IMG/VR virus record: IMGVR_UViG_3300017917_002605
Span: 110,471 to 168,911 of that record
DNA length: 58,441 nucleotides
Direction: 5' to 3' (one strand)
Origin: a virus
Taxonomy: Duplodnaviria; Heunggongvirae; Uroviricota; Caudoviricetes
Each line of letters starts with the position of its first letter. The stretch's first letter is position 1. The translations under genes and the position numbers were made by a program. Shown here piece after piece: positions 1 through 37,080 of this stretch. A model generated the notes under the pieces. It was not told the DNA's origin and made no database searches. It saw nothing but the letters and a program-made list of their open reading frames with translations.

Positions 1-2448
1 AGACACCACTGTTGTATTGTTGATTACCACAGGTTGTGCAGCATCAGCCACTTGTTTTCTCTGTTGAACACCTACATCATTTGATGCGCTTGCAACCATG
101 GCACCAGTTGGTGATTTTTGTGGTGGTGGTTGTGGAACAGGTTGTGATTTACCAGTTGATACATCAGATGCCTTACCGTCTTTACCTGCGACCAAAACTG
201 GTTGACCAGGATTAACCGGGTTATCCGGTGTTGGCATAGAACCTGTAGCTTGTACGTGCCAATCTTCATTAGGAATAGGTCTGGTCAAACCAAACTTTTC
301 CAACCATCCAGTTGGCCTATCACGTGGTCCTGCAAGAGCGTTGATACCAGCTTCACCTTTTGAATTGATATCGATGGCTTCACCAGTTAAGTGTTTGCTG
401 CCTTTGCCTTTACCCAAAGGAGGCATAGGTTCAGCAACCATCTTTCTTGCTGCAGCTTCATTGCCACCAACTTGAGCAAGTTTTGCATCCCACAATTCTT
501 TTTGTTTTTCATTACTGCGTACACCAGAAGTAACCATCAACTTCTTACCGGTTTCTGCCTGGAACGCAGCCGCCATTTTGGCAACTCTTTCTTCAAGTGT
601 AGATTTGAAACTTGAAATATCTACACCAGAATTTTGTTTTGTCACAACAGCGGAAAGTGCAGGTACTTTACCGGAAGCAACTTCTTCTTTCTTTGGTGTT
701 GTTGGTGCAGCTGCCACTTGTGTGGTTGGAGGTTTCACTGCTTGTGGTGCAACCTGGCCCATACCTTCACGAATCAAAGCAACAACAGTTTGTGCTCTAC
801 CTTTAACTTGTTTGTACCACTGACTGTCAGTTAATTCATCGGCAGCCTTTTGGAAATCTCCAGCGGCAAGTGCAGCAGCGGTATTCTTAAATTTCTTATA
901 CCATCCACCACCCATGTTGAATGCAAGGTCGATAAGTGCAGCACGACCTTTTTCATTTGCTTTGTCGTACCCTGGTGATTTCTCGGCCATCTTTTTGTGA
1001 TGTTCATAGTCTTTTGCAAACAGAGCATCAATCTCCTGCATTGTGAATTCTCTATCCCATTCTGGAGGCAAAGTTTTTCCATCACCAATCAGATGACCAA
1101 CACCGACAGTCCATAGTCCAAGTGAATCTTTGTATGGTCTTGTTCTTACACCTTCGTGTTTTTTAATCATGGCCATAATGGACTTGTCATCACCACTAAT
1201 TGAAGGCGCCTTAACTTCTTTTGTTGGTGCCTCAGGTTTTCCAGCAGGAGGTTGTTGCTTAGTTACTTTTTCTGCCTTCTGTTTTTCCATTGTCTCACGC
1301 ATTTCTGCGGCAGACACTTCACCCAATCCCATACGAGAACGAACAATTTCATCTCGACCGGTGTATTGTGCGGCCTTTTCTTGTTCCTCGGTACGTCTAA
1401 TTTCTTCTTCGGTGTATTTCGGATACATCGATTTGGCTTGTTCTGCCGTAGGACCACCTTGTCCACCACGGCCGCCACCGGCACCAACTTCTTTTTGTTT
1501 TGCAGCTGCCGCAGCATCAATTTGTTGTTGTACTGTTTTGCCGGCATCTTTTGCGTCAACATTTATTTGTGATTTGCCTGTGTCTTTAGGCATTTCTAAT
1601 TCTTTTGGTTTTTCCTCTTTTCGCTTTATAGGAATACCAAAGAAATCCATTACACTATAGAACTTGTCTGAGACAAACTTACCAACTTCACCAAAGAAAC
1701 TCTTGACTGATTCCCATAGTGGTTCCAAAAATTCACCAACCTTACCAATAGCCTTGGTCAGGTTTTCTAAAGTGAAAGTATCTTTAATCCAGTCTAAGAA
1801 TTCACCAGACTTTTCTTTAATTGTTTCCCAAAGTTTGCCGCCAACAATCCATTCGTCCCATGCGGAAACGATATCGTCCCATAGACCTTGAAAGAATTCG
1901 ATGAGATTCAATGCACCATACACCGCAAGAATCAAAACGTTGGGGTCAGCCAACATCTTAATGAGACTTGCCCACCAAGTTGTTTTGGTTTTCACACCTT
2001 TAGTGGTGTCTTTCCTTGCGGTTGGTTTTCCTGCTTTATCGACACGTTCTGGTGTACGTTTCTCTTTTTCTTTTTCACGTTGAACACCTAGTGCTTCTTC
2101 TCTCTCGCCAGCTTTTAGAAAATGTGCATCTGCACCCAAAGCAGGTTTCAATTCTTTTGCTTTGGTTATCTTAACAATGTTCTGACGAATAACGTTGAAA
2201 TCACGACTCATGCCTGCCATGGTCATGGAGTTTTTAGTCAGAATCGATAAGTCGGCCGATATATCGGACAGATGTTCTTTTTGGTCAGACAGTTGTTCAG
2301 GTTGTTGTGTAACCTTTTCAACCTTGGTTTCTTTTGCGGGTTTCTTGCTACCAAATACTTTTTCACCAACTGCACCAAGAAGACTTGTTTTCTGTGTCTT
2401 CTTTTTTGGACCAAATTCTTTTTTGATTGCGTCAAGTAGTTTTGCCAT
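1..2448 (-). CDS. Tape-measure/gp29-like tail protein with T4-type (GH24) lysozyme and M15 Zn-peptidase domains; 3' end runs off the window (>=816 aa; not in ORF track)
   Basis: Hand translation from ATG 2448 (TAATG overlap with the stop of 2448..5237): MAKLLDAIKKEFGPKKK..., open to base 1. Contains MIKKHEGVRTRPYKDSLGLWTVGVGHLIG (E-x8-D-x5-T triad at 1155/1128/1110) and TSGVRS...SKHLTGEAID...EDWH (H-x6-D at 393/372; ExxH at 267-256). Confidence 0.85.
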   Translation of the reverse strand, partial: MAKLLDAIKKEFGPKKKTQKTSLLGAVGEKVFGSKKPAKETKVEKVTQQPEQLSDQKEHLSDISADLSILTKNSMTMAGMSRDFNVIRQNIVKITKAKELKPALGADAHFLKAGEREEALGVQREKEKEKRTPERVDKAGKPTARKDTTKGVKTKTTWWASLIKMLADPNVLILAVYGALNLIEFFQGLWDDIVSAWDEWIVGGKLWETIKEKSGEFLDWIKDTFTLENLTKAIGKVGEFLEPLWESVKSFFGEVGKFVSDKFYSVMDFFGIPIKRKEEKPKELEMPKDTGKSQINVDAKDAGKTVQQQIDAAAAAKQKEVGAGGGRGGQGGPTAEQAKSMYPKYTEEEIRRTEEQEKAAQYTGRDEIVRSRMGLGEVSAAEMRETMEKQKAEKVTKQQPPAGKPEAPTKEVKAPSISGDDKSIMAMIKKHEGVRTRPYKDSLGLWTVGVGHLIGDGKTLPPEWDREFTMQEIDALFAKDYEHHKKMAEKSPGYDKANEKGRAALIDLAFNMGGGWYKKFKNTAAALAAGDFQKAADELTDSQWYKQVKGRAQTVVALIREGMGQVAPQAVKPPTTQVAAAPTTPKKEEVASGKVPALSAVVTKQNSGVDISSFKSTLEERVAKMAAAFQAETGKKLMVTSGVRSNEKQKELWDAKLAQVGGNEAAARKMVAEPMPPLGKGKGSKHLTGEAIDINSKGEAGINALAGPRDRPTGWLEKFGLTRPIPNEDWHVQATGSMPTPDNPVNPGQPVLVAGKDGKASDVSTGKSQPVPQPPPQKSPTGAMVASASNDVGVQQRKQVADAAQPVVINNTTVVS

Positions 2449-5237
2449 TATGCCATCACCATTTCAGCAAACACTTCATCAACAACGCTAGCAGTTTCTT
2501 TCTTATCATCTGTTGTTGCGGTGTTGTTAGATGTACTTGAGTTGTTATTGATAACTGTTGGTTCGTTAGCAGACATTTCTAGTCTTTGTTGTTCAGCAAC
2601 TTCAGCAGACGCCAAGGACAAATCAGAACCAGAAGTTGTCGAACTTGAAGGTTCGGAAACAGTTGATGGTGTTGCCGCAAGACTTGCCGCTGACGAACTT
2701 GCCCCACCGCCTGAAGTTGCCGAAGGTGCAGCAGAAGTAGATGATTCACCACCAGAAGGAATTATTGCCGCAGACTCTGGAACAGCGCTAGGAGAAGTTG
2801 CCGAGGTGGATGATGCGCCACCACCTTCTGTGAAGATACTTTTAGCATCCGTATCTGATAGGGAAGCCACCAGTGATGGTGCCTGGTCCATGCCCATGCC
2901 GGCGGCAACTTTACCGAAAGTCTTTAATTGTTCCGCAGGAGTTTTTGCGGCACCCATTTCTGCACCGGCAGATTCCATTGCTTGTCTTGTTGGACCACCT
3001 GTACCCATACCAAAAAGTTTCGTCAGTCTGTCATTAAGATTTGCAGCTGCGCCTTTTTGTTCTGGTGTTTGTGCTACCTGTTGTTCCAATTCTTTAGAAA
3101 TGGTATTCACAGGCACAGGTTTTTCACCGGCCTTTGCCAATGTTTGAACACGCATTCTTTCGAAGTCACCAGCAGCAATCAGAGCAGTTGTGATATCGTT
3201 ATCCATTTCTGCAATCTTTTCTGGTGGTGCACCGTCAGCAATTGCTTTCTCTTTTGCTTTTTTAATTTTTCTAACAAGACTTATGGTTTCATCACGTTTC
3301 TTTTCATAGTAAGATGCTTGTTCAACCAAAGACTTGTCTTTTTCACCAACAAGGTCCATCTTTGTTGGCATCTTTTGGTCTGCTGCCGCAACAGCTTCTG
3401 TAGATTGTTTTGTTGGTGTTTGTTCTTGTTCTTTACCAATATCTGCTGGTGTTGCCGGTGTTGTTTTCTCTGGTTTAGATTCTGTCGATTCTTTTTTGGT
3501 GGCCGCATCCATTGCTTTATCAGCAGCTGCCGAAGGAGAAACTTCTTTCTTCTCTGGTTGTGCAGAAACTTCAGGTGCCGCAGATTTTGGATTAGATTTG
3601 AATGGATACCAAGGACCAATACTTCCTAATTCCCATGGTCCTTTCTTAACTTCCATGCCATCAAAGATGGTTATTCTTTTGCCACCCAACAAAGCAGGCA
3701 AATCAACTGAAATTGCTGGTATAGTAAAACCTATTGCGGGTATTGTTGGCAGTTTTATTTCAGGAATACCAACGTTGTTCACCACCCAATCTTTAATTGT
3801 GGTAACAACTTTACTGATACTATCAATCACAGGGTTGATGTACTCACCAACCGTATTGAACAGTGTTCTTATTGATTCTTTATCGAATAAACCAAAGGTT
3901 AGGAAATCAACAATACCACCAAGGCCTGCAATGATTGCTTCTTTTAGGTCTCCCGTTTCTTGCCATGCTTTCCATCCGTCAATCAGACCATTGACCAACG
4001 AGGCAACCAATGTACCAATAACGAATACTTTACCTAAAACTTTTAGTAGGTTGGATGGTTTAAAGATGAATCGTAAAGCTTTGAATAGACCATCTTTCAC
4101 CCAATTGATAATGGTACCAATGAAGTCTTTGATGTTGAAACCACCACCATCAGAAGATTTTTCTGAACCTTTAATTGGTGATGTGTTTGATTTTTCTTTA
4201 CTCTTTAATTTTGCACGTTCAGCTTCTAACGCAGCTTCACGTTCATCCGCCTTCAAGAAATACATGTCGGCACCGGTCGCAGCTTTCTTAGAATCGTCTT
4301 TGCCTTCGACCTTGCTTTTGCCTTTCTCTAATACACTGTTGGTAATTTTGATTACGTTCTGACGAATGACATTAATATCTCTGCTCATTCCAGCCCAAGT
4401 CATTGAGTTCTTGGCTAAAATGGAAATGTCATTTCTAATGTCACCTAATTCTTCACCACCGATGCCTTCAGGTGCAGGCGAAACAGAACTGGTCATATCG
4501 CCAGGTTGTTTTAGTGCATTGTATCCTTTACCGAATACTTTCTCACCAACAGCGCCCATCAGTCCAGAACCAAATGCGTTTCTTGGGTCCAGTTTTTCTT
4601 TTAGTCGTTCTTTTGTTGCAACTGCTATACCACCAAAAGTGCCGGCGCCTTCATCGGTTGCTTTTCTATACAGTTGTGCAAGTCTGGTTCCTGAACCGTA
4701 ATCTTTTCTACCAGAAGAAACGTCAGCGCCAGATTTAACACGGTCACTTTCTTTTTTCTGCTTTTGTTCCTCATTCTTTACAGTCTGAGGTTCTTCTGTT
4801 GGTTCAGGTGCAGTTGATTTTTGTTTTTCACGTTCAATCTTTTCTTTACGTGCTTCTAGTGCGGAACCACGTAGCGGTTTACCTATTTTGTCAAGGTATT
4901 CCGGTGGAACAACTTCTTCTGGCACAGGTTCCTGTTTTACAAGTTCCAATGCCTTCGATGTTACTGCTTTTTCAGCAGCATCAAATGCGGCCATTTCTTG
5001 AGGCGTTGTACCTAAGATATCCGCTTCAGATTTTTGAACTAATGCTTGTTGTTCTGCTTCCGTTACTTCTTCTTTAGGAGAAAGTAGAGCATTCAGTTTT
5101 TCAGCAATTTCTTTCTTTGCAGAACGACCGGCTTTTCCTGTTTTAGGATTAACTACCGCCCATGCGGCACCCATCCAACGATATGTGGTGCCTTCAAAGG
5201 TCACTTCAGCGTTTAGTTCTGGTTTAAAATCTGCCAT
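2448..5237 (-). CDS. Tape-measure/baseplate hub gp29-like protein (929 aa)
   Basis: Long Ala/Lys/Glu/Ser-rich ORF with a Trp/Phe amphipathic segment (FIGTIINWVKDGLFKALRFIF...DGWKAWQETG); lies downstream of gp26/gp51; paralogous to 1..2448. Confidence 0.65.
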   Translation of the reverse strand: MADFKPELNAEVTFEGTTYRWMGAAWAVVNPKTGKAGRSAKKEIAEKLNALLSPKEEVTEAEQQALVQKSEADILGTTPQEMAAFDAAEKAVTSKALELVKQEPVPEEVVPPEYLDKIGKPLRGSALEARKEKIEREKQKSTAPEPTEEPQTVKNEEQKQKKESDRVKSGADVSSGRKDYGSGTRLAQLYRKATDEGAGTFGGIAVATKERLKEKLDPRNAFGSGLMGAVGEKVFGKGYNALKQPGDMTSSVSPAPEGIGGEELGDIRNDISILAKNSMTWAGMSRDINVIRQNVIKITNSVLEKGKSKVEGKDDSKKAATGADMYFLKADEREAALEAERAKLKSKEKSNTSPIKGSEKSSDGGGFNIKDFIGTIINWVKDGLFKALRFIFKPSNLLKVLGKVFVIGTLVASLVNGLIDGWKAWQETGDLKEAIIAGLGGIVDFLTFGLFDKESIRTLFNTVGEYINPVIDSISKVVTTIKDWVVNNVGIPEIKLPTIPAIGFTIPAISVDLPALLGGKRITIFDGMEVKKGPWELGSIGPWYPFKSNPKSAAPEVSAQPEKKEVSPSAAADKAMDAATKKESTESKPEKTTPATPADIGKEQEQTPTKQSTEAVAAADQKMPTKMDLVGEKDKSLVEQASYYEKKRDETISLVRKIKKAKEKAIADGAPPEKIAEMDNDITTALIAAGDFERMRVQTLAKAGEKPVPVNTISKELEQQVAQTPEQKGAAANLNDRLTKLFGMGTGGPTRQAMESAGAEMGAAKTPAEQLKTFGKVAAGMGMDQAPSLVASLSDTDAKSIFTEGGGASSTSATSPSAVPESAAIIPSGGESSTSAAPSATSGGGASSSAASLAATPSTVSEPSSSTTSGSDLSLASAEVAEQQRLEMSANEPTVINNNSSTSNNTATTDDKKETASVVDEVFAEMVMA

Positions 5238-5383
5238 TATCGTCTAGACTTTGCTGTTTGTTTTTGTAACTGAATTCTCTCTTTTTCTTCCTGAAGATAT
5301 TTCACTAATAACTCTATGTAAATTGTACGTTCCCAAGGTAACATATTTTCCAATTCTGTCAGACTATACTTGTGATGTTGCAT
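5237..5383 (-). CDS. gp51: gp51-like baseplate hub assembly protein (48 aa from ATG; probably made as a -1 frameshift extension of gp26)
   Basis: Hand translation MQHHKYSLTELENMLPWERTIYIELLVKYLQEEKERIQLQKQTAKSRR*; the M.PWER motif is typical of the short gp51 of T4-like phages; frame is open upstream to 5458 with no SD before the ATG. Confidence 0.8.
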   Translation of the reverse strand: MQHHKYSLTELENMLPWERTIYIELLVKYLQEEKERIQLQKQTAKSRR

Positions 5384-5433
5384 CAGAGCAAAATTGGTTT
5401 GATAGTAATTACTCAGAGTATCATAACGGAAGC

Positions 5434-6168
5434 TTATACGAAAAAATTTTGCAGTCCTTTAATTGTAATCTTTTCTTCATAACCACACTTTGGACACTTG
5501 AACGGAACGTCTGCCTTAATTTCAGGCATAGTGTCAAAAAATTGTTTGATTTTCTCCAAGTCTTTTTGTTGGAGACTATCAATGAATTCTTCTAGTTCTT
5601 CACGTGTGTTGTCTTTTGCATAGTAAATGTTATCACTGTCATACACGTAGTCCAAACAATCAATTAGAACGTTCAAAAGAATCTCATCTTCTGTCTTGTT
5701 CTCATATTTTTCTGCCATTTCAAATGTTGGGTATTTTAAAACAATACCTAGATTTGGTGTCAGTTGAATCTTGTTTGTGTGTTCAGGATTCATCGTTGGT
5801 TCAATCTTTGTCAGATTCAAATCATATTCAAAGATACCAATACATTTCTTTTCTTCACCAGTTTCTTCATCTTTAACGTTGTTGTTGCACTTATAACGCA
5901 TTTCAACAACTTCTTCAACAGACCTTGCACGTAGATTCATAAACAAGTATTCAAGGTCAAAAGTTGGAAGACTTTCGATATTGATATCATCCAGAATACA
6001 GTTCTTTAGAACCTGACGAATGGTTTGAATCGTTTCTTTGGTGTCATCTGATTGTGACGCCATCATAAACAACTTTTGTTCCTTTACTAAGAAAGGACGG
6101 AATTTAATTTTCTTCTTGTTTGAAGGCAAGGTCACTTCATACACAGGCACATCAAGTTTAGGTAACAT
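5434..6168 (-). CDS. gp26: Baseplate hub subunit / assembly chaperone gp26
   Basis: N-terminus LPKLDVPVYEVTLPS...KFRPFLVKEQK, LRARSVEE, C-terminal CPKCG; characteristic of the gp26 family. Confidence 0.85.
   Translation of the reverse strand: MLPKLDVPVYEVTLPSNKKKIKFRPFLVKEQKLFMMASQSDDTKETIQTIRQVLKNCILDDINIESLPTFDLEYLFMNLRARSVEEVVEMRYKCNNNVKDEETGEEKKCIGIFEYDLNLTKIEPTMNPEHTNKIQLTPNLGIVLKYPTFEMAEKYENKTEDEILLNVLIDCLDYVYDSDNIYYAKDNTREELEEFIDSLQQKDLEKIKQFFDTMPEIKADVPFKCPKCGYEEKITIKGLQNFFV
5440..5446 (-). other. Candidate -1 programmed frameshift heptamer T TTT TTC
   Basis: gp26 ends CAA AAT TTT TTC GTA TAA; -1 slip gives TTT TTT CGT ATA AGC TTC..., in frame with gp51. Confidence 0.65.
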
Positions 6169-6184
6169 AATTTCTCCAAATTAA

Positions 6185-6979
6185 TTAAAATAATATTCTA
6201 TTGAATGCACGACCAACGGTACCACCGATGGTGTTTCCAAACAACTGAGAACCTTTCGATAGTAGATTGTTGGCAATAGAACCTCCAAAGATAGAAGTTG
6301 CTGCGGCACCCAAATCGTATCCACCTTTGTAAACCACTTTATAATTGGTATACGCAAATGATATAGACAAACGATGGAAACCTTCTTCACCCCAACTCAA
6401 TGGTTGAGGAGAGATACCTACTGGAAAAGCTTCAATTAATTCCACAGCATAAATTTGTTTGATAAACTCATCATACTGAATAATCTTAATATTAGTTAGG
6501 TAACGGGTTTCGTTATCTGCTGGAAATCTAACGTTCCAGGTATCGGATGGGTGAATGCATTCCATCCATTGGTCAAACAATTTTCTTTCGTAAAATTCAT
6601 TGGTACACAAGAACGTAAGATTGATATCGTTGAATTGTGACGCATATGGAATTTTACTGATTGGTCCGTAAATTTTACGGTCAGCAGTCTGTAGTGTTCT
6701 ACCAGGCAATTCAGCAGCTTCACACTGTAATGCCAAATAACGTGACATTGCAGGATTGGAAGATGTAGATGCTGGATTTGCACCTAATCCACCAAAGATG
6801 GAGTTGGTAATATCTGTAACTGCGCCAGTCACGGAACCAATGATGTTGTCGATAACTGAGTTTCCAACAAATTTGTTTACTGCCGATGGAATGGGCAAGA
6901 CCACCTCAAAACGGTTGTTTTTGGCAAAACCGTCTTTGATTTTGGCATTAGCCAAGAATTCATTTGGTGAAAATGGCAT
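6185..6979 (-). CDS. gp54: Baseplate tail-tube initiator gp54-like (gp19 fold); likely start ATG 6979 (MPFSPNEF)
   Basis: FAKNNRFEV, LQCEAAELPGRTL, YGPISKIPY, F...FDQWME and final 'LSISFAY' pattern of the T4 gp19/gp54 family; TAATG coupling to gp2 fixes the start (ORF-track start 7066 overlaps gp2). Confidence 0.75.
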   Translation of the reverse strand: MPFSPNEFLANAKIKDGFAKNNRFEVVLPIPSAVNKFVGNSVIDNIIGSVTGAVTDITNSIFGGLGANPASTSSNPAMSRYLALQCEAAELPGRTLQTADRKIYGPISKIPYASQFNDINLTFLCTNEFYERKLFDQWMECIHPSDTWNVRFPADNETRYLTNIKIIQYDEFIKQIYAVELIEAFPVGISPQPLSWGEEGFHRLSISFAYTNYKVVYKGGYDLGAAATSIFGGSIANNLLSKGSQLFGNTIGGTVGRAFNRILF

Positions 6980-7575
6980 TAGAATTTTTTCCTTGAATCT
7001 GACCAAACTCTGCTTGCACTGGCACCAGAGAAGTTGTGTACAGGTAATAAAGCCGCAATATCCCACTCACTTGCATCTATTTCCACAAAACGTGACTGTA
7101 TGTGAGAATATAGATATCTTTTGATGCAGGCCTGCAACTCATAGACCTTAGAAGCGGAGGCTAACAATTGATAACTTAAACGTAATCTTGTCGTTGAATC
7201 GTATTTGGAATTGTTGGCGTACTCACTCAATTTGTTCAAAAGAATAATTCTGTCTTTAGGATGAATGTAGTGTAAGTTTAAACCTAAAAATCCATTTGGA
7301 TACATTTCGATTGGTATCACTAAAGGGAATCGGTCAAAATACGGCAAAACATCTTTGTATTTTGCATCATATACGAAATAAAACATTCTACCAATGGCAT
7401 TTGCATCGACCTTAGTGCCATCCAATCTGGACTTGTCAGACAACAGATTTTTACGTGCGTTTGCCTGTCCAATGTTTTTAAATTTTTGAATGAGCCAATC
7501 TCTGGACTTGGCACTTCTAGGTGCAAATCCTTCTTTGGATAGTTGTTCTTGAATACGGTCTATTAGATACGGCAT
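6979..7575 (-). CDS. gp2: DNA end protector protein gp2
   Basis: GRMFYFVYDAKYKDVLPYFDRFPLV and GFLGLNLHY motifs. Confidence 0.9.
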   Translation of the reverse strand: MPYLIDRIQEQLSKEGFAPRSAKSRDWLIQKFKNIGQANARKNLLSDKSRLDGTKVDANAIGRMFYFVYDAKYKDVLPYFDRFPLVIPIEMYPNGFLGLNLHYIHPKDRIILLNKLSEYANNSKYDSTTRLRLSYQLLASASKVYELQACIKRYLYSHIQSRFVEIDASEWDIAALLPVHNFSGASASRVWSDSRKKF

Positions 7576-7646: not shown

Positions 7647-8096
7647 TCAAGTTAATCCAAGTTCATCTTCAGTGATGATTTGAAACTTCCATCCATGTTC
7701 CTGACAGAATTCGTCAGCGGCTTTCCATTTCATCTGATTCACGGCGTAAGTTGCCGCTTCCTCTAGAAACCTCTTTGTTTTTCTCTTTTGTGTTGGTTTC
7801 TGAGTCTGTTTCTTTGGTTTGACCTCAATTACGTAGGTCATCACAGTACCATCTTTCCTTTTCATCTTTGCAACAAAGTCGGGAAAGTATCTGTGTTTTC
7901 GTCCATCCACAGGCGATATATACGGGATTACCAATTCTTCACTTGCCCACCATAGAACGGATGGGTCACGGTCGAAGTGTTTCATCAATTTAAGTTCCCA
8001 TGAGGAACGGTAGATGATGTTTTTCGCATCACCCTTATACTTAGAGGGGTTTGTGGGAGTAAATATTCCCTTGTACGTTTTATTGCCGAAAGACAT
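7647..8096 (-). CDS. gp4: Head completion nuclease gp4 (TnsA-N-like)
   Basis: NPSKYKGD, YRSSWE, WWASEE, HRYFPDF, IEVKP motifs. Confidence 0.92.
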   Translation of the reverse strand: MSFGNKTYKGIFTPTNPSKYKGDAKNIIYRSSWELKLMKHFDRDPSVLWWASEELVIPYISPVDGRKHRYFPDFVAKMKRKDGTVMTYVIEVKPKKQTQKPTQKRKTKRFLEEAATYAVNQMKWKAADEFCQEHGWKFQIITEDELGLT

Positions 8097-36001: not shown

Positions 36002-36424
36002 ATGGCATATCTTGGTAACCAACAAATAAACGGAACCTTTAATTCCCAGTTCTTTTCTGGTGATGGTTCCACAACAGAATTCACGTTACAGTATTCAACT
36101 GGTAACGAAGCTTCCGTATTGGTCTTCATCACTGGTGTTAAACAGCAGACCACTACCTATGCATTGATTAACGGTAAGATTGTTTTTACTGAAGCGCCAC
36201 CAGCTGGATACAATAACATTGAATTGGTTTATCTTGGTGACCGTGTTCAAGTTAATCCTTACCTAAGTGCAGATTCACAAGGTATTATCAGACTTAACGC
36301 AAGCGTATTGACAGAAAACGTGACAATTACAACCGGTTATAATGCATCTTCTGCCGGTCCATTGACCATTGCAAATAACGTTGTTGTAACAATCGCAAAC
36401 AACTCTACTTGGACGGTGTTCTAA
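36002..36424 (+). CDS. Fibre adaptor-like protein A2 (140 aa)
   Basis: MAYLGN + one FSGDGSTTEFTL...FTEAPPAG module (as 32059) + C-terminal domain shared with 29125. Confidence 0.7.
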   Translation: MAYLGNQQINGTFNSQFFSGDGSTTEFTLQYSTGNEASVLVFITGVKQQTTTYALINGKIVFTEAPPAGYNNIELVYLGDRVQVNPYLSADSQGIIRLNASVLTENVTITTGYNASSAGPLTIANNVVVTIANNSTWTVF

Positions 36425-37080
36425 TGGCAGGCACAATTATTGCAGATTACATCCGTGCGGATGCTAACAAATTAAGTTTGAATGTAGGCAATACTACTTT
36501 TGCCACAATTAATTCTTCAGGTTTTTTCAGTAACACCGGTGTTCAAATTATTGACCAAAATGGTCAAGTTGGTGCATTATCTGTAGGTACCAACCAATTA
36601 CAAACTGGTGCTGTTACACAAACAAAAATTGGTTCTAATGTTGCTGGAACAGGCCCAATTTTTATAACATCAATGGGTGCGGCACAAACTTTAACAAGTG
36701 CTGTTTGGACTAAAGTTGCCTTTGATACAGAAAGTGTTGATTCACATAACTGTTATAACACTTCTCTTTATAGATTTACGCCGACTGTTGCCGGTTATTA
36801 TCAATTCACATTACAATTCACAGCTGGTACAGGTAATATTCAAGCAGTTCAAAGCGGACTTTATAAAAACGGAAGTGCAATTGCATGGAACGTAAATTAT
36901 TTAATGTCTGTAAGTTATGGAGATGATTTAACATCTTCTTTGACAAAATTGGTTTATATGAATGGTACTACAGACTATATTGAACCTTATGGCTATGTGG
37001 TTGACGCTTCTGCCGGTAGTGATGTTATATTTTCAAGCATATATTCTCATTTTGAAGGTTTCTTGGCAAGGGCTGCATAA
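36424..37080 (+). CDS. Receptor-binding tip, family A (C1q-like); likely start ATG 36424
   Basis: TAATG coupling; WTKVAFDTESVDSHNCYNTSLYRFTPTVAGYYQF; VYMNGTTDYIE; FEGFLAR. Confidence 0.72.
   Translation: MAGTIIADYIRADANKLSLNVGNTTFATINSSGFFSNTGVQIIDQNGQVGALSVGTNQLQTGAVTQTKIGSNVAGTGPIFITSMGAAQTLTSAVWTKVAFDTESVDSHNCYNTSLYRFTPTVAGYYQFTLQFTAGTGNIQAVQSGLYKNGSAIAWNVNYLMSVSYGDDLTSSLTKLVYMNGTTDYIEPYGYVVDASAGSDVIFSSIYSHFEGFLARAA

Follow-up and report, generated by a model that had tools for sequence, protein, structure and literature searches.

In the contractile-tailed phages P2 (gpE / gpE+E') and Mu (gp41/42), a -1 shift takes place at the end of a chaperone gene that lies upstream of the tape measure gene. 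In gene 10A/10B of phage T7 a -1 shift takes place on the heptamer G_GUU_UUC, a U-rich site of a late gene at which tRNA-Phe slips from UUC to UUU. The lambda-type frameshift, which has been described by Levin et al. 1993 and by Xu, Hendrix and Duda (2004, 2013, 2014), yields a short and a long tail protein, gpG and gpGT, with a common N-terminal part. For T4-like phages, Vladimirov, Gautam and Davidson (Virology 2022, 566:9-15, pmid 34826709) are reported to have identified gp26 and gp51 as the tail assembly chaperones (TACs). This study is cited by the PRFect (PMC10274946) and Adele (PMC12846349) papers; one of the two cites it for a short and a long form of the TAC in T4-like phages and the other for poly-T slip signals in the TAC-N genes of these phages, and the Adele paper in addition alludes to the precedent of T7 gene 10. 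Since GenBank record NC_049493 also lists both gp26 and gp51 as 'tape measure protein assembly chaperone', the idea that these proteins form a chaperone pair is not new. No direct experimental proof of the long protein, for the phage studied here or for any relative, was found in the literature.

The DNA analysed here (the window) is a stretch of 58,441 nucleotides from the IMG/VR record IMGVR_UViG_3300017917_002605. The phage is an uncultured T4-like one and the window carries homologues of the T4-type structural genes gp4, gp2, gp54-like, gp48, gp53, gp5, gp25, gp6, gp8, gp15, gp17, gp18, gp19 and gp20. Within this set gp26 is found in the hub/tube module, where the order is gp2, a gp54-like gene with a tube fold, gp26, the small gp51 ORF in the -1 frame and a gene of 929 amino acids; coordinates, frames and motifs of the gp26/gp51 locus all refer to a reading of the minus strand. 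The gp54-like gene (6185..6979, minus strand), which is of the baseplate tail tube initiator type and lies directly upstream of gp26, matches phrog_45 (tail tube, E 1.4e-33) and weakly the Pfam family Phage_TTP_2, and its orthologue in the record of phage Mosig is annotated as 'baseplate tail tube initiator'. It likely starts at ATG 6979, which shares one base with the gp2 stop (TAATG). The gene of 929 amino acids (2448..5237, minus strand), coupled to the -1 frame by another TAATG, is called tape-measure-like from its position, size and composition only; Pfam and PHROG searches gave no significant match for it, and neither did a comparison with T4 gp29. The order tube fold, gp26, gp51, tape measure that was given in a preliminary description of this DNA thus holds, with the identity of its last member being positional only.

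The frame-0 product of gp26 (5434..6168, minus strand, starting at 6168 and stopping at 5434) has 244 amino acids and a mass of 28.8 kDa. It matches PF12322 (T4_baseplate) over residues 8-243 with 212.7 bits and E 6.9e-63, the gathering cut-off of this family being 24.5 bits, and phrog_150 with E 2.7e-68. It consists of an N-terminal TAC fold (approximately residues 1-90) and an extra domain after this fold, and four cysteines, C94, C109, C225 and C228, resemble a zinc-ribbon set.

For the structural comparison two AF2 models, one of the window gp26 (pLDDT 94.4) and one of a fusion (90.4), were searched against 48,161 chains. With both models the top three chains were 2ob9 (the HK97 TAC), 3klu (YqbN) and 3fgx, at moderate Z scores of 6.7-7.7 overall and of 7.1-7.5 for the window gp26; the alignments covered 83-85 residues of 96-119 with an rmsd of 3.6-4.2. 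From their gene context we take 3klu and 3fgx to be TACs as well. The next rows reached Z 4.5 with the window gp26, apart from 5ir0_B, and at most 5.2 with the fusion model, these being unrelated helical matches to its extension. The chain 5ir0_B, ORF19 of a Vibrio PICI-like element, scored Z 6.0 with the window gp26 and 4.7 with the fusion model. When the Phage_TAC Pfam families were searched against residues 1-100 of the window gp26, of P0006 and of T4 gp51, none matched at E values up to 10, and the relation of gp26 to Phage_TAC, as suggested by the models, would be visible at the level of the fold only.

At its 3' end gp26 reads CAA AAT TTT TTC GTA TAA, giving the C-terminus GLQNFFV, and contains the slippery heptamer T_TTT_TTC in X_XXY_YYZ phase at 5440..5446, the proposed site of the -1 shift. 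The frame-0 stop TAA (5434..5436) follows one sense codon past the heptamer, whereas the -1 frame is shut by a TAA at 5459..5461, four codons upstream. A Shine-Dalgarno-like AGGA at 5455..5458, 8 nt 5' of the heptamer, is a possible stimulator, and distant relatives carry an RRGGN motif at the same spacing; as AGGA overlaps the conserved glycine codon of the G-x-x-x-F-F motif, its conservation is inseparable from protein constraint and its role unproven. No conserved stimulatory RNA structure was found 3' of the site (z-score -0.55; the consensus fold of -5.6 kcal/mol begins only about 38 nt downstream), and the efficiency of frameshifting is therefore probably low. The motif TTTTTTC by itself is not above chance, with 19 occurrences in the window against 34 expected, so that the case for the site has to rest on its conservation in relatives.

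From the heptamer onwards the -1 frame reads FFRISFRYDTLSNYYQTNFAL-M... and ends with the TAA at 5239-5237, an extension of 69 codons plus stop (5237..5446, minus strand; the TAC-C or 'T' part). The joined protein of 241 + 69 = 310 amino acids would have a mass of 37.0 kDa. The translated extension matches phrog_634 over residues 2-65 with E 6.1e-27. In a tblastn search it found 569 phage records, 506 of which cover at least 80% of the query, and among the matches listed all alignments except one begin at its residue 1. The first ATG, GTG or TTG in the extension is ATG 5383, the start of a 48-amino-acid ORF (5237..5383, minus strand) that databases call gp51, 'baseplate hub assembly catalyst', and neither GGAG nor AGGA occurs within the 30 nt upstream of it. 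The heptamer, the closed -1 frame upstream, the AGGA, the lack of a Shine-Dalgarno sequence at the gp51 ATG and the lengths of 310 and 244 amino acids had all been given in the preliminary description and were found again in the sequence.

The site was compared in 89 related loci, which span cyanophages, a pelagiphage and phages of the phiM12, KVP40 and Aeromonas 65 types. In 88 of them the heptamer is T_TTT_TTC, and in the remaining one, phiM19, it is T_TTT_TTT within a run of seven T. The pattern recurs in Mosig, P-SSM2, P-TIM40, P-HM1, Milchi, a KVP40-type Vibrio phage, Aeromonas 65, Ps15, OLIVR5, AS-zj, Sf-CH8, S-RIM2, Syn10 and ACG-2014d as well as, with the longer run, in phiM19. All 79 readable IMG/VR relatives (gp26 identity 64-79%) have T_TTT_TTC exactly 9 nt ahead of the gp26 stop, and their -1 frame is open for 65-69 codons wherever the contig includes its stop. 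The spacing to the frame-0 stop is unchanged in 86 of the 89 loci. Upstream of the heptamer the -1 frame of the relatives is open for only 0-23 codons, and in 84 of 89 loci this part has no start codon. Among the C-termini of 133 full-length gp26 cluster representatives, 101 consist of FF plus 0-3 residues and about 22 end in SFLx, which would be consistent with a T_TTT_TTR slip site. In the Ackermannviridae phage Se-G a homologous -1 extension is kept, and G_ATT_TTC replaces the canonical heptamer.

Ahead of the T run the codon has the form NNT throughout, whichever amino acid it encodes (N, S, D or A). After TTC comes GTC, GTT, GCC, GCT, GGC or GTA, which gives V, A or G when read in frame 0 but in every case arginine (CGN) in frame -1. 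Across 41 unique sequences, the column entropy at the three codon positions is 0.28/0.20/0.98 for frame 0 in the part upstream of the heptamer; for frame -1, over the 56 nt from the heptamer to the ATG, it is 0.20/0.09/0.67. The periodicity of variability thus follows frame 0 precisely up to the heptamer and frame -1 from there on. Judged from this pattern, the 19 codons preceding the ATG are under purifying selection in the -1 frame, and alignment A4 shows N13, Y15, N18 and F19 to be invariant, all of them upstream of M22. Missing conservation of the heptamer or of the coding potential ahead of the ATG, as well as independent initiation at ATG 5383, had been named beforehand as what would speak against a frameshift; the heptamer and the protein sequence turned out to be conserved, the latter with variable third positions of the -1 frame, and the ATG itself did not, so that all three outcomes favour a frameshift.

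The comparison with T4 points in the same direction. T4 gp26 and T4 gp51 each match PF12322, gp51 over its residues 1-201 (E 3.9e-52), and residues 200-246 of T4 gp51 align to the -1 product beginning at the slip site (BLASTP, E 1e-6). T4 gp51 therefore has the fused architecture in a single frame, a gp26-like domain followed by a homologous C-terminal extension, and relatives carry a precomputed match to Gp51_C (PF28602). As a negative control, the gp26 genes of T4, Lazarus and Aes508, in which gp51 is a separate full-length gene, lack the T run, the FF codons of T4 gp26 being TTC TTT with no slippery run. From these alignments we propose that the long form encoded in the window would be the counterpart of T4 gp51.

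Taken as a whole, gp26 is in all likelihood a tail (hub and tape-measure) assembly chaperone, a single gene yielding two forms of it by a -1 shift. The majority of ribosomes would stop at TAA 5436-5434 and release the short form of 244 amino acids (TAC-N, the analogue of gpG). In a minority, tRNA-Phe on TTT TTC of the heptamer (5446-5440) would slip back by one base, and these ribosomes would continue with CGT ATA AGC... in the -1 frame, adding 67 residues to give the long form of 310 amino acids (TAC-NC, the analogue of gpGT). The shift itself is presumed to be ribosomal and of low efficiency. As in lambda, the short form may coat the tape-measure protein and the extension may recruit a tube or hub component.

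The same two proteins would arise if RNA polymerase added one U in the U6 run, so that a fraction of the mRNAs joins gp26 and the extension in-frame; protein outcome and biology would be identical and the recoding step alone would differ. The site is indeed a homopolymer, which in phiM19 has grown to seven T, a run of six by itself does not exclude polymerase slippage, and the search for an RNA stimulator was negative. However, bacterial RNA polymerase as a rule requires runs of about 8-9 to slip during elongation, and the run here is exactly six T followed by C in 88 of 89 loci and seven in one. It always stands in X_XXY_YYZ phase, although the conserved FF dipeptide also constrains this phase, and T7 gene 10 offers a precedent among phages for a slip of tRNA-Phe on UUUC. 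In addition, the 'other mechanism' of Vladimirov et al. is rendered as two separate genes in the PRFect paper (PMC10274946). We therefore regard a transcriptional origin of the shift as improbable. Even less can be said for an error in the homopolymer during sequencing or assembly, by which the true gene would be one continuous ORF of 310 amino acids. In-frame fusions of about 300 amino acids do occur among metagenomic gene calls, but the examined ones, P0012 and P0017, come from pilon-polished nanopore contigs with four or seven T replacing the six, and the genes next to them are fragmented, whereas 89 independent assemblies and isolate genomes share T6 and the frame-0 stop, and the best 150 cluster representatives are nearly all 230-250 amino acids long and terminate at the slip site. 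Such an error is scarcely credible.

It could also be argued that no recoding takes place and that ribosomes re-initiate at ATG 5383, 50 nt past the gp26 stop, to make the 48-amino-acid 'gp51'. The window has this ATG, products of 48 amino acids are annotated in many phage records, and the ORF alone still matches phrog_634 with E 1.4e-17. Against this, the ATG has no Shine-Dalgarno sequence, the selection in the -1 frame and the invariant residues extend over the 19 codons ahead of it, the homology to T4 gp51 starts at the slip site, and the very phages with a separate full-length gp51 gene have lost the T run. The ATG itself is missing or displaced in many relatives: its equivalent is V or I in P-HM1, ACG-2014d and the loci L007, L046 and L085, and the first ATG of Aeromonas 65, AS-zj and ACG-2014d comes only at codon 33-35, beyond the conserved core. 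In Syn10 and ACG-2014d the small ORF has no annotation at all. The 48-amino-acid ORF is thus probably not a separate gene, and re-initiation as the source of gp51 appears very improbable.

The proposed frameshift in gp26 resembles that of lambda gpG/gpGT in many respects. There are two overlapping ORFs between the tube-fold and the tape-measure genes, an X_XXY_YYZ heptamer near the end of the first one that needs no RNA stimulator, a common N-terminal part of the short and long forms and a TAC fold (Z 7.1-7.7 with the HK97 TAC). Both parts are homologous to T4 gp51, and the N-terminus of gp26 has a TAC fold; this bears out the earlier reading of gp26/gp51 as a G/T pair and makes it likely that the analogy is one of homology. 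The window differs from lambda in its heptamer, T_TTT_TTC instead of G_GGA_AAG, in a chaperone that is about 100 amino acids longer than gpG and has an extra domain with zinc-ribbon-like cysteines, and in matching none of the Phage_TAC Pfam families at the level of sequence. To the TACs of P2 and Mu, which are much smaller proteins, a sequence relation is undetectable. T7 gene 10A/10B encodes a capsid protein rather than a chaperone and differs in the P-site codon; it bears mainly on the G_ATT_TTC variant of Se-G.

Less likely, the recoding departs from the textbook slip of two tandem tRNAs, or the long form has a role that lambda gpGT lacks. The Se-G site would fit slippage of tRNA-Phe in the A site only, or slippage of the polymerase, as the true shared mechanism. 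By T4 genetics, gp26 and gp51 belong to hub assembly, not to tube initiation (PMC3004832), a further difference from lambda, and the extension may accordingly dock the tape-measure complex on hub or tube-initiator proteins instead of the major tube protein.

With the T4-like TAC-N/TAC-NC system, as it is reported, the window shares the family (PF12322 and Gp51_C), the short and long forms and the poly-T signal, and there is no difference of principle. All of these features, together with the separate genes that T4 itself has for the two forms, were reproduced independently here. The window contributes an uncultured member whose ORFs would be annotated separately. Real and deeply conserved as the slip signal is, its principle was already published in 2022 for T4-like phages, and the window is a good unannotated example rather than a discovery. 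The practical value lies in annotation, the extension being present in 569 public phage records; those that were opened have a 'baseplate hub assembly catalyst' of 26-57 amino acids or nothing annotated, and a joined CDS in none. Very probably two proteins, one short and one long, come from the gp26 locus through a -1 slip on the conserved TTTTTTC. The rule known from lambda for long-tailed phages, a short and a long tail chaperone encoded at a single locus, would thereby extend to the T4-type phages, and the enigmatic 'hub assembly catalyst' gp51 of T4 would find an explanation.

The closest named relatives of this uncultured T4-like phage are Kyanoviridae cyanophages and the Pelagibacter phage Mosig, and the plus strand of the 58-kb window carries homologues of gp48, gp53, gp5, gp25, gp6, gp8, gp15, gp17, gp18, gp19 and gp20. 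The minus strand encodes gp4 (head closure, 7647-8096), gp2 (DNA end protector, 6979-7575), a gp54-like gene with a tube fold (6185-6979), gp26 (244 aa, 5434-6168; PF12322, 212.7 bits), a small ORF that opens with ATG 5383 (5383-5237) and matches phrog_634, 'baseplate hub assembly catalyst', and a 929-aa tape-measure-like gene (2448-5237) which is coupled to the small ORF by TAATG. Of the candidate starts of the gp54-like gene, ATG 6979 is the most likely one; it overlaps the gp2 stop as TAATG (6977-6981, minus strand), with the same one-base overlap in Mosig, and is preferred to the GTG 7066 given by the ORF finder. A second large ORF (1-2448, minus strand; more than 816 aa), TAATG-coupled after the 929-aa gene, extends past the edge of the window. 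The 929-aa protein had no match to PF25671 and a best E value against T4 gp29 of only 0.14. Besides the TTTTTTC at the end of gp26, a further one in X_XXY_YYZ phase is found at 36522-36528 (plus strand), inside an ORF of 223 aa with a TTG start (36409-37080).

The preliminary description had proposed that gp26 is joined to a gp51-like extension by a -1 frameshift. The site was correct on re-reading: gp26 ends CAA AAT TTT TTC GTA TAA, so that T_TTT_TTC, in X_XXY_YYZ phase, occupies 5446-5440, AGGA lies 8 nt 5' of the heptamer, and the -1 frame is shut by TAA at 5461-5459 and thereafter open for 69 codons (5237-5446, minus strand). ATG 5383 has indeed no Shine-Dalgarno sequence and is the first start codon of the -1 frame, 50 nt past the gp26 stop. 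The predicted lengths also stand, with 310 aa (37.0 kDa) for the fusion, or long form, versus 244 aa (28.8 kDa) for gp26 alone, the short form. On its own the heptamer carries little weight; TTTTTTC was observed 19 times in the window versus 34 expected. It is the comparison with relatives that decides the case.

A close set of 80 IMG/VR loci was compared, in which gp26 is 64–79% identical. T_TTT_TTC stands exactly 9 nt ahead of the gp26 stop in all 79 readable loci, and the -1 frame is open for 65–69 codons wherever the contig extends to its stop. When a uniform script was applied, 89 loci had the site, reading TTTTTTC in 88 and TTTTTTT in one. The same arrangement is present in Mosig, P-SSM2, P-TIM40, P-HM1, Sf-CH8, S-RIM2, Syn10 and ACG-2014d, as well as in Pseudomonas phage Milchi, a KVP40-type Vibrio phage, Aeromonas phages 65 and AS-zj, Stenotrophomonas phage Ps15, Agrobacterium phage OLIVR5 and, with T_TTT_TTT as the site, Sinorhizobium phage phiM19. 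In the GenBank records of Syn10 (L099) and ACG-2014d (L101) the extension ORF is unannotated, leaving an apparent gap of 190 nt between gp26 and the next gene.

The codon ahead of the T run is always NNT while its residue differs (N, S, D, A), and the codon after TTC (GTC, GTT, GCC, GCT, GGC or GTA) reads V, A or G in frame 0 and always Arg in frame -1. Among 41 unique close sequences, column entropy by codon position was 0.28/0.20/0.98 for frame 0 upstream of the heptamer and 0.20/0.09/0.67 for frame -1 over the 56 nt from the heptamer to the ATG. Extension residues N13, Y15, N18 and F19, all ahead of the Met, proved invariant.

A tblastn search with the 69-aa product of the -1 frame yielded 569 phage records, 506 of them with at least 80% query coverage; among the matches listed, all alignments but one begin at residue 1, and most cross gp26 and gp51 features. 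The gp26 family has 4920 members in a 50%-identity clustered library, and nearly all of the best 150 of these are 230–250 aa long and end at the slip site. The C-terminus is FF plus 0–3 residues in 101 of the 133 full-length representatives from these 150, and SFLx in about 22; judged from the proteins, the SFLx ends would correspond to T_TTT_TTR.

Salmonella phage Se-G (Ackermannviridae) has a -1 frame past gp26 whose homology to the extension is clear (DFHLIFEIDLLSYF vs FFRLIFRYDTLGNYY; L089:3220-3290), at a site, GAG ATT TTC ATT TAA, with four T only and no canonical X_XXY_YYZ. This could reflect independent initiation in this phage, or slippage of tRNA-Phe in the A site only, of the kind seen at T7 G_GUU_UUC.

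T4 gp26 and gp51 are listed as hub assembly chaperones which are absent from the virion (PMC3004832; PMC9024508). The gp26 family model covers residues 1-201 of the 249-aa T4 gp51 (E 3.9e-52), and residues 200-246 of that protein align with the -1 product of the window from the slip site on (E 1e-6), a link that is also found through matches to phrog_634 and phrog_150. Because of the family-model match and the extension alignment, T4 gp26 is the counterpart of the short form and T4 gp51 that of the long form, in one frame. Genes 26 and 51 of T4 are divergent, and therefore no shift is possible there. T4 gp26 retains the C-terminal G-L-x-x-F-F motif; since its FF codons are TTC TTT and the corresponding gp26 site in Acinetobacter phage Lazarus is TTT GTT, the slippery run is retained solely where it is needed. 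Aeromonas phage Aes508 is likewise of the two-gene type. A tree of 18 gp26-type domains gives no date for the duplication behind T4 gp26 and gp51: the two T4-type clades sit on long branches that join each other, and the backbone lacks resolution.

The heptamer is very probably read by a ribosomal -1 slip, in which tRNA-Phe would move back on UUU UUC. A downstream RNA stimulator is not supported, as single-sequence folding gave a z of -0.55 and RNAalifold on 15 relatives only a weak helix from about 38 nt downstream (-5.6 kcal/mol, one covarying pair); lambda G/GT likewise has no conserved downstream RNA structure. Because such a structure is missing, the slip efficiency is probably a few per cent. 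An RRGGN motif upstream of the heptamer is a possible counterpart of the Shine-Dalgarno-like stimulator of dnaX, a role that is unproven because the motif overlaps a conserved Gly codon. Slippage of the polymerase on U6 would result in the same protein, and we consider it unlikely.

Independent initiation of the small ORF at its ATG is poorly supported and highly improbable, as the Met of the extension is dispensable: it is replaced by V or I in several loci, and the first ATG comes only at codon 33–35, beyond the conserved core, in Aeromonas 65, AS-zj and ACG-2014d. Least probable of all, and again poorly supported, is that the frame break is an assembly error. The two in-frame fusions traced among metagenomic proteins lie on nanopore/pilon contigs with indels in the T run and were set aside as evidence for or against. 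In these contigs, L096 and L097 (ENA; 4001-4900 in each), apparent gp26-gp51 fusions of 299 aa stem from seven-T and four-T runs replacing the six-T run, and neighbours such as gp32 are also split.

By analogy with lambda, coating of the tape measure would fall to the short form and recruitment of a tube or hub protein to the extension, roles which fit the T4 literature on hub assembly chaperones. Complex prediction from alignments A3 and A4, pairing the extension (69 aa) with gp19, the major tube protein, scored 0.00 and yielded no verdict, which weighs neither for nor against contact between the two.

AlphaFold models of P0006, a metagenomic (Tara) in-frame fusion (pLDDT 90.4), and of the window gp26 (pLDDT 94.4) were compared exhaustively with 48,161 PDB chains. 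The top three matches were common to both models, namely the HK97 tail assembly chaperone 2ob9, the B. subtilis prophage protein YqbN 3klu, and 3fgx (Z 6.7–7.7, 83–85 residues aligned, all onto residues 1-90). The next row for the window gp26 was 5ir0 (ORF19 of a Vibrio PICI-like element, function unknown; Z 6.0, and 4.7 with the fusion model), the others reaching at most 5.2 with the fusion model and 4.5 with the window gp26. Foldseek against the PDB returned none at E 0.001, with 2ob9 present merely as a weak row; sequence searches gave no match to the Phage_TAC Pfam families, no solved relative in the PDB and no named relative in NCBIfam. The remainder of gp26 is modelled as an extra alpha/beta domain, and the extension in the fusion model as three helices. 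The alpha/beta domain carries four cysteines (94, 109, 225 and 228; KC..KKC and CPKC) that are widely spaced and resemble a split zinc ribbon. The same pattern occurs in T4 gp26 and gp51, and metal binding by these chaperones is apparently undiscussed in the literature examined.

The gp26-gp51 frameshift is thus a sound finding, yet one that is already known. The existence and gist of the study by Vladimirov, Gautam and Davidson (Virology 2022, 566:9-15) are borne out by papers citing it: where the Adele paper cites it, it is for poly-T -1 signals in TAC-N genes (encoding the short form of the tail assembly chaperone) of T4-like phages, and where PRFect does, for a short gene plus a fused long gene instead of frameshifting in some of these phages. 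In addition, gp26 and gp51 are already named 'tape measure protein assembly chaperone' in GenBank NC_049493, and Pfam now includes a Gp51_C family. Nanopore/pilon contigs with T-run errors can mimic or hide recoding sites. The remaining use of the finding lies in the correction of annotations and in a direct test of the long form.
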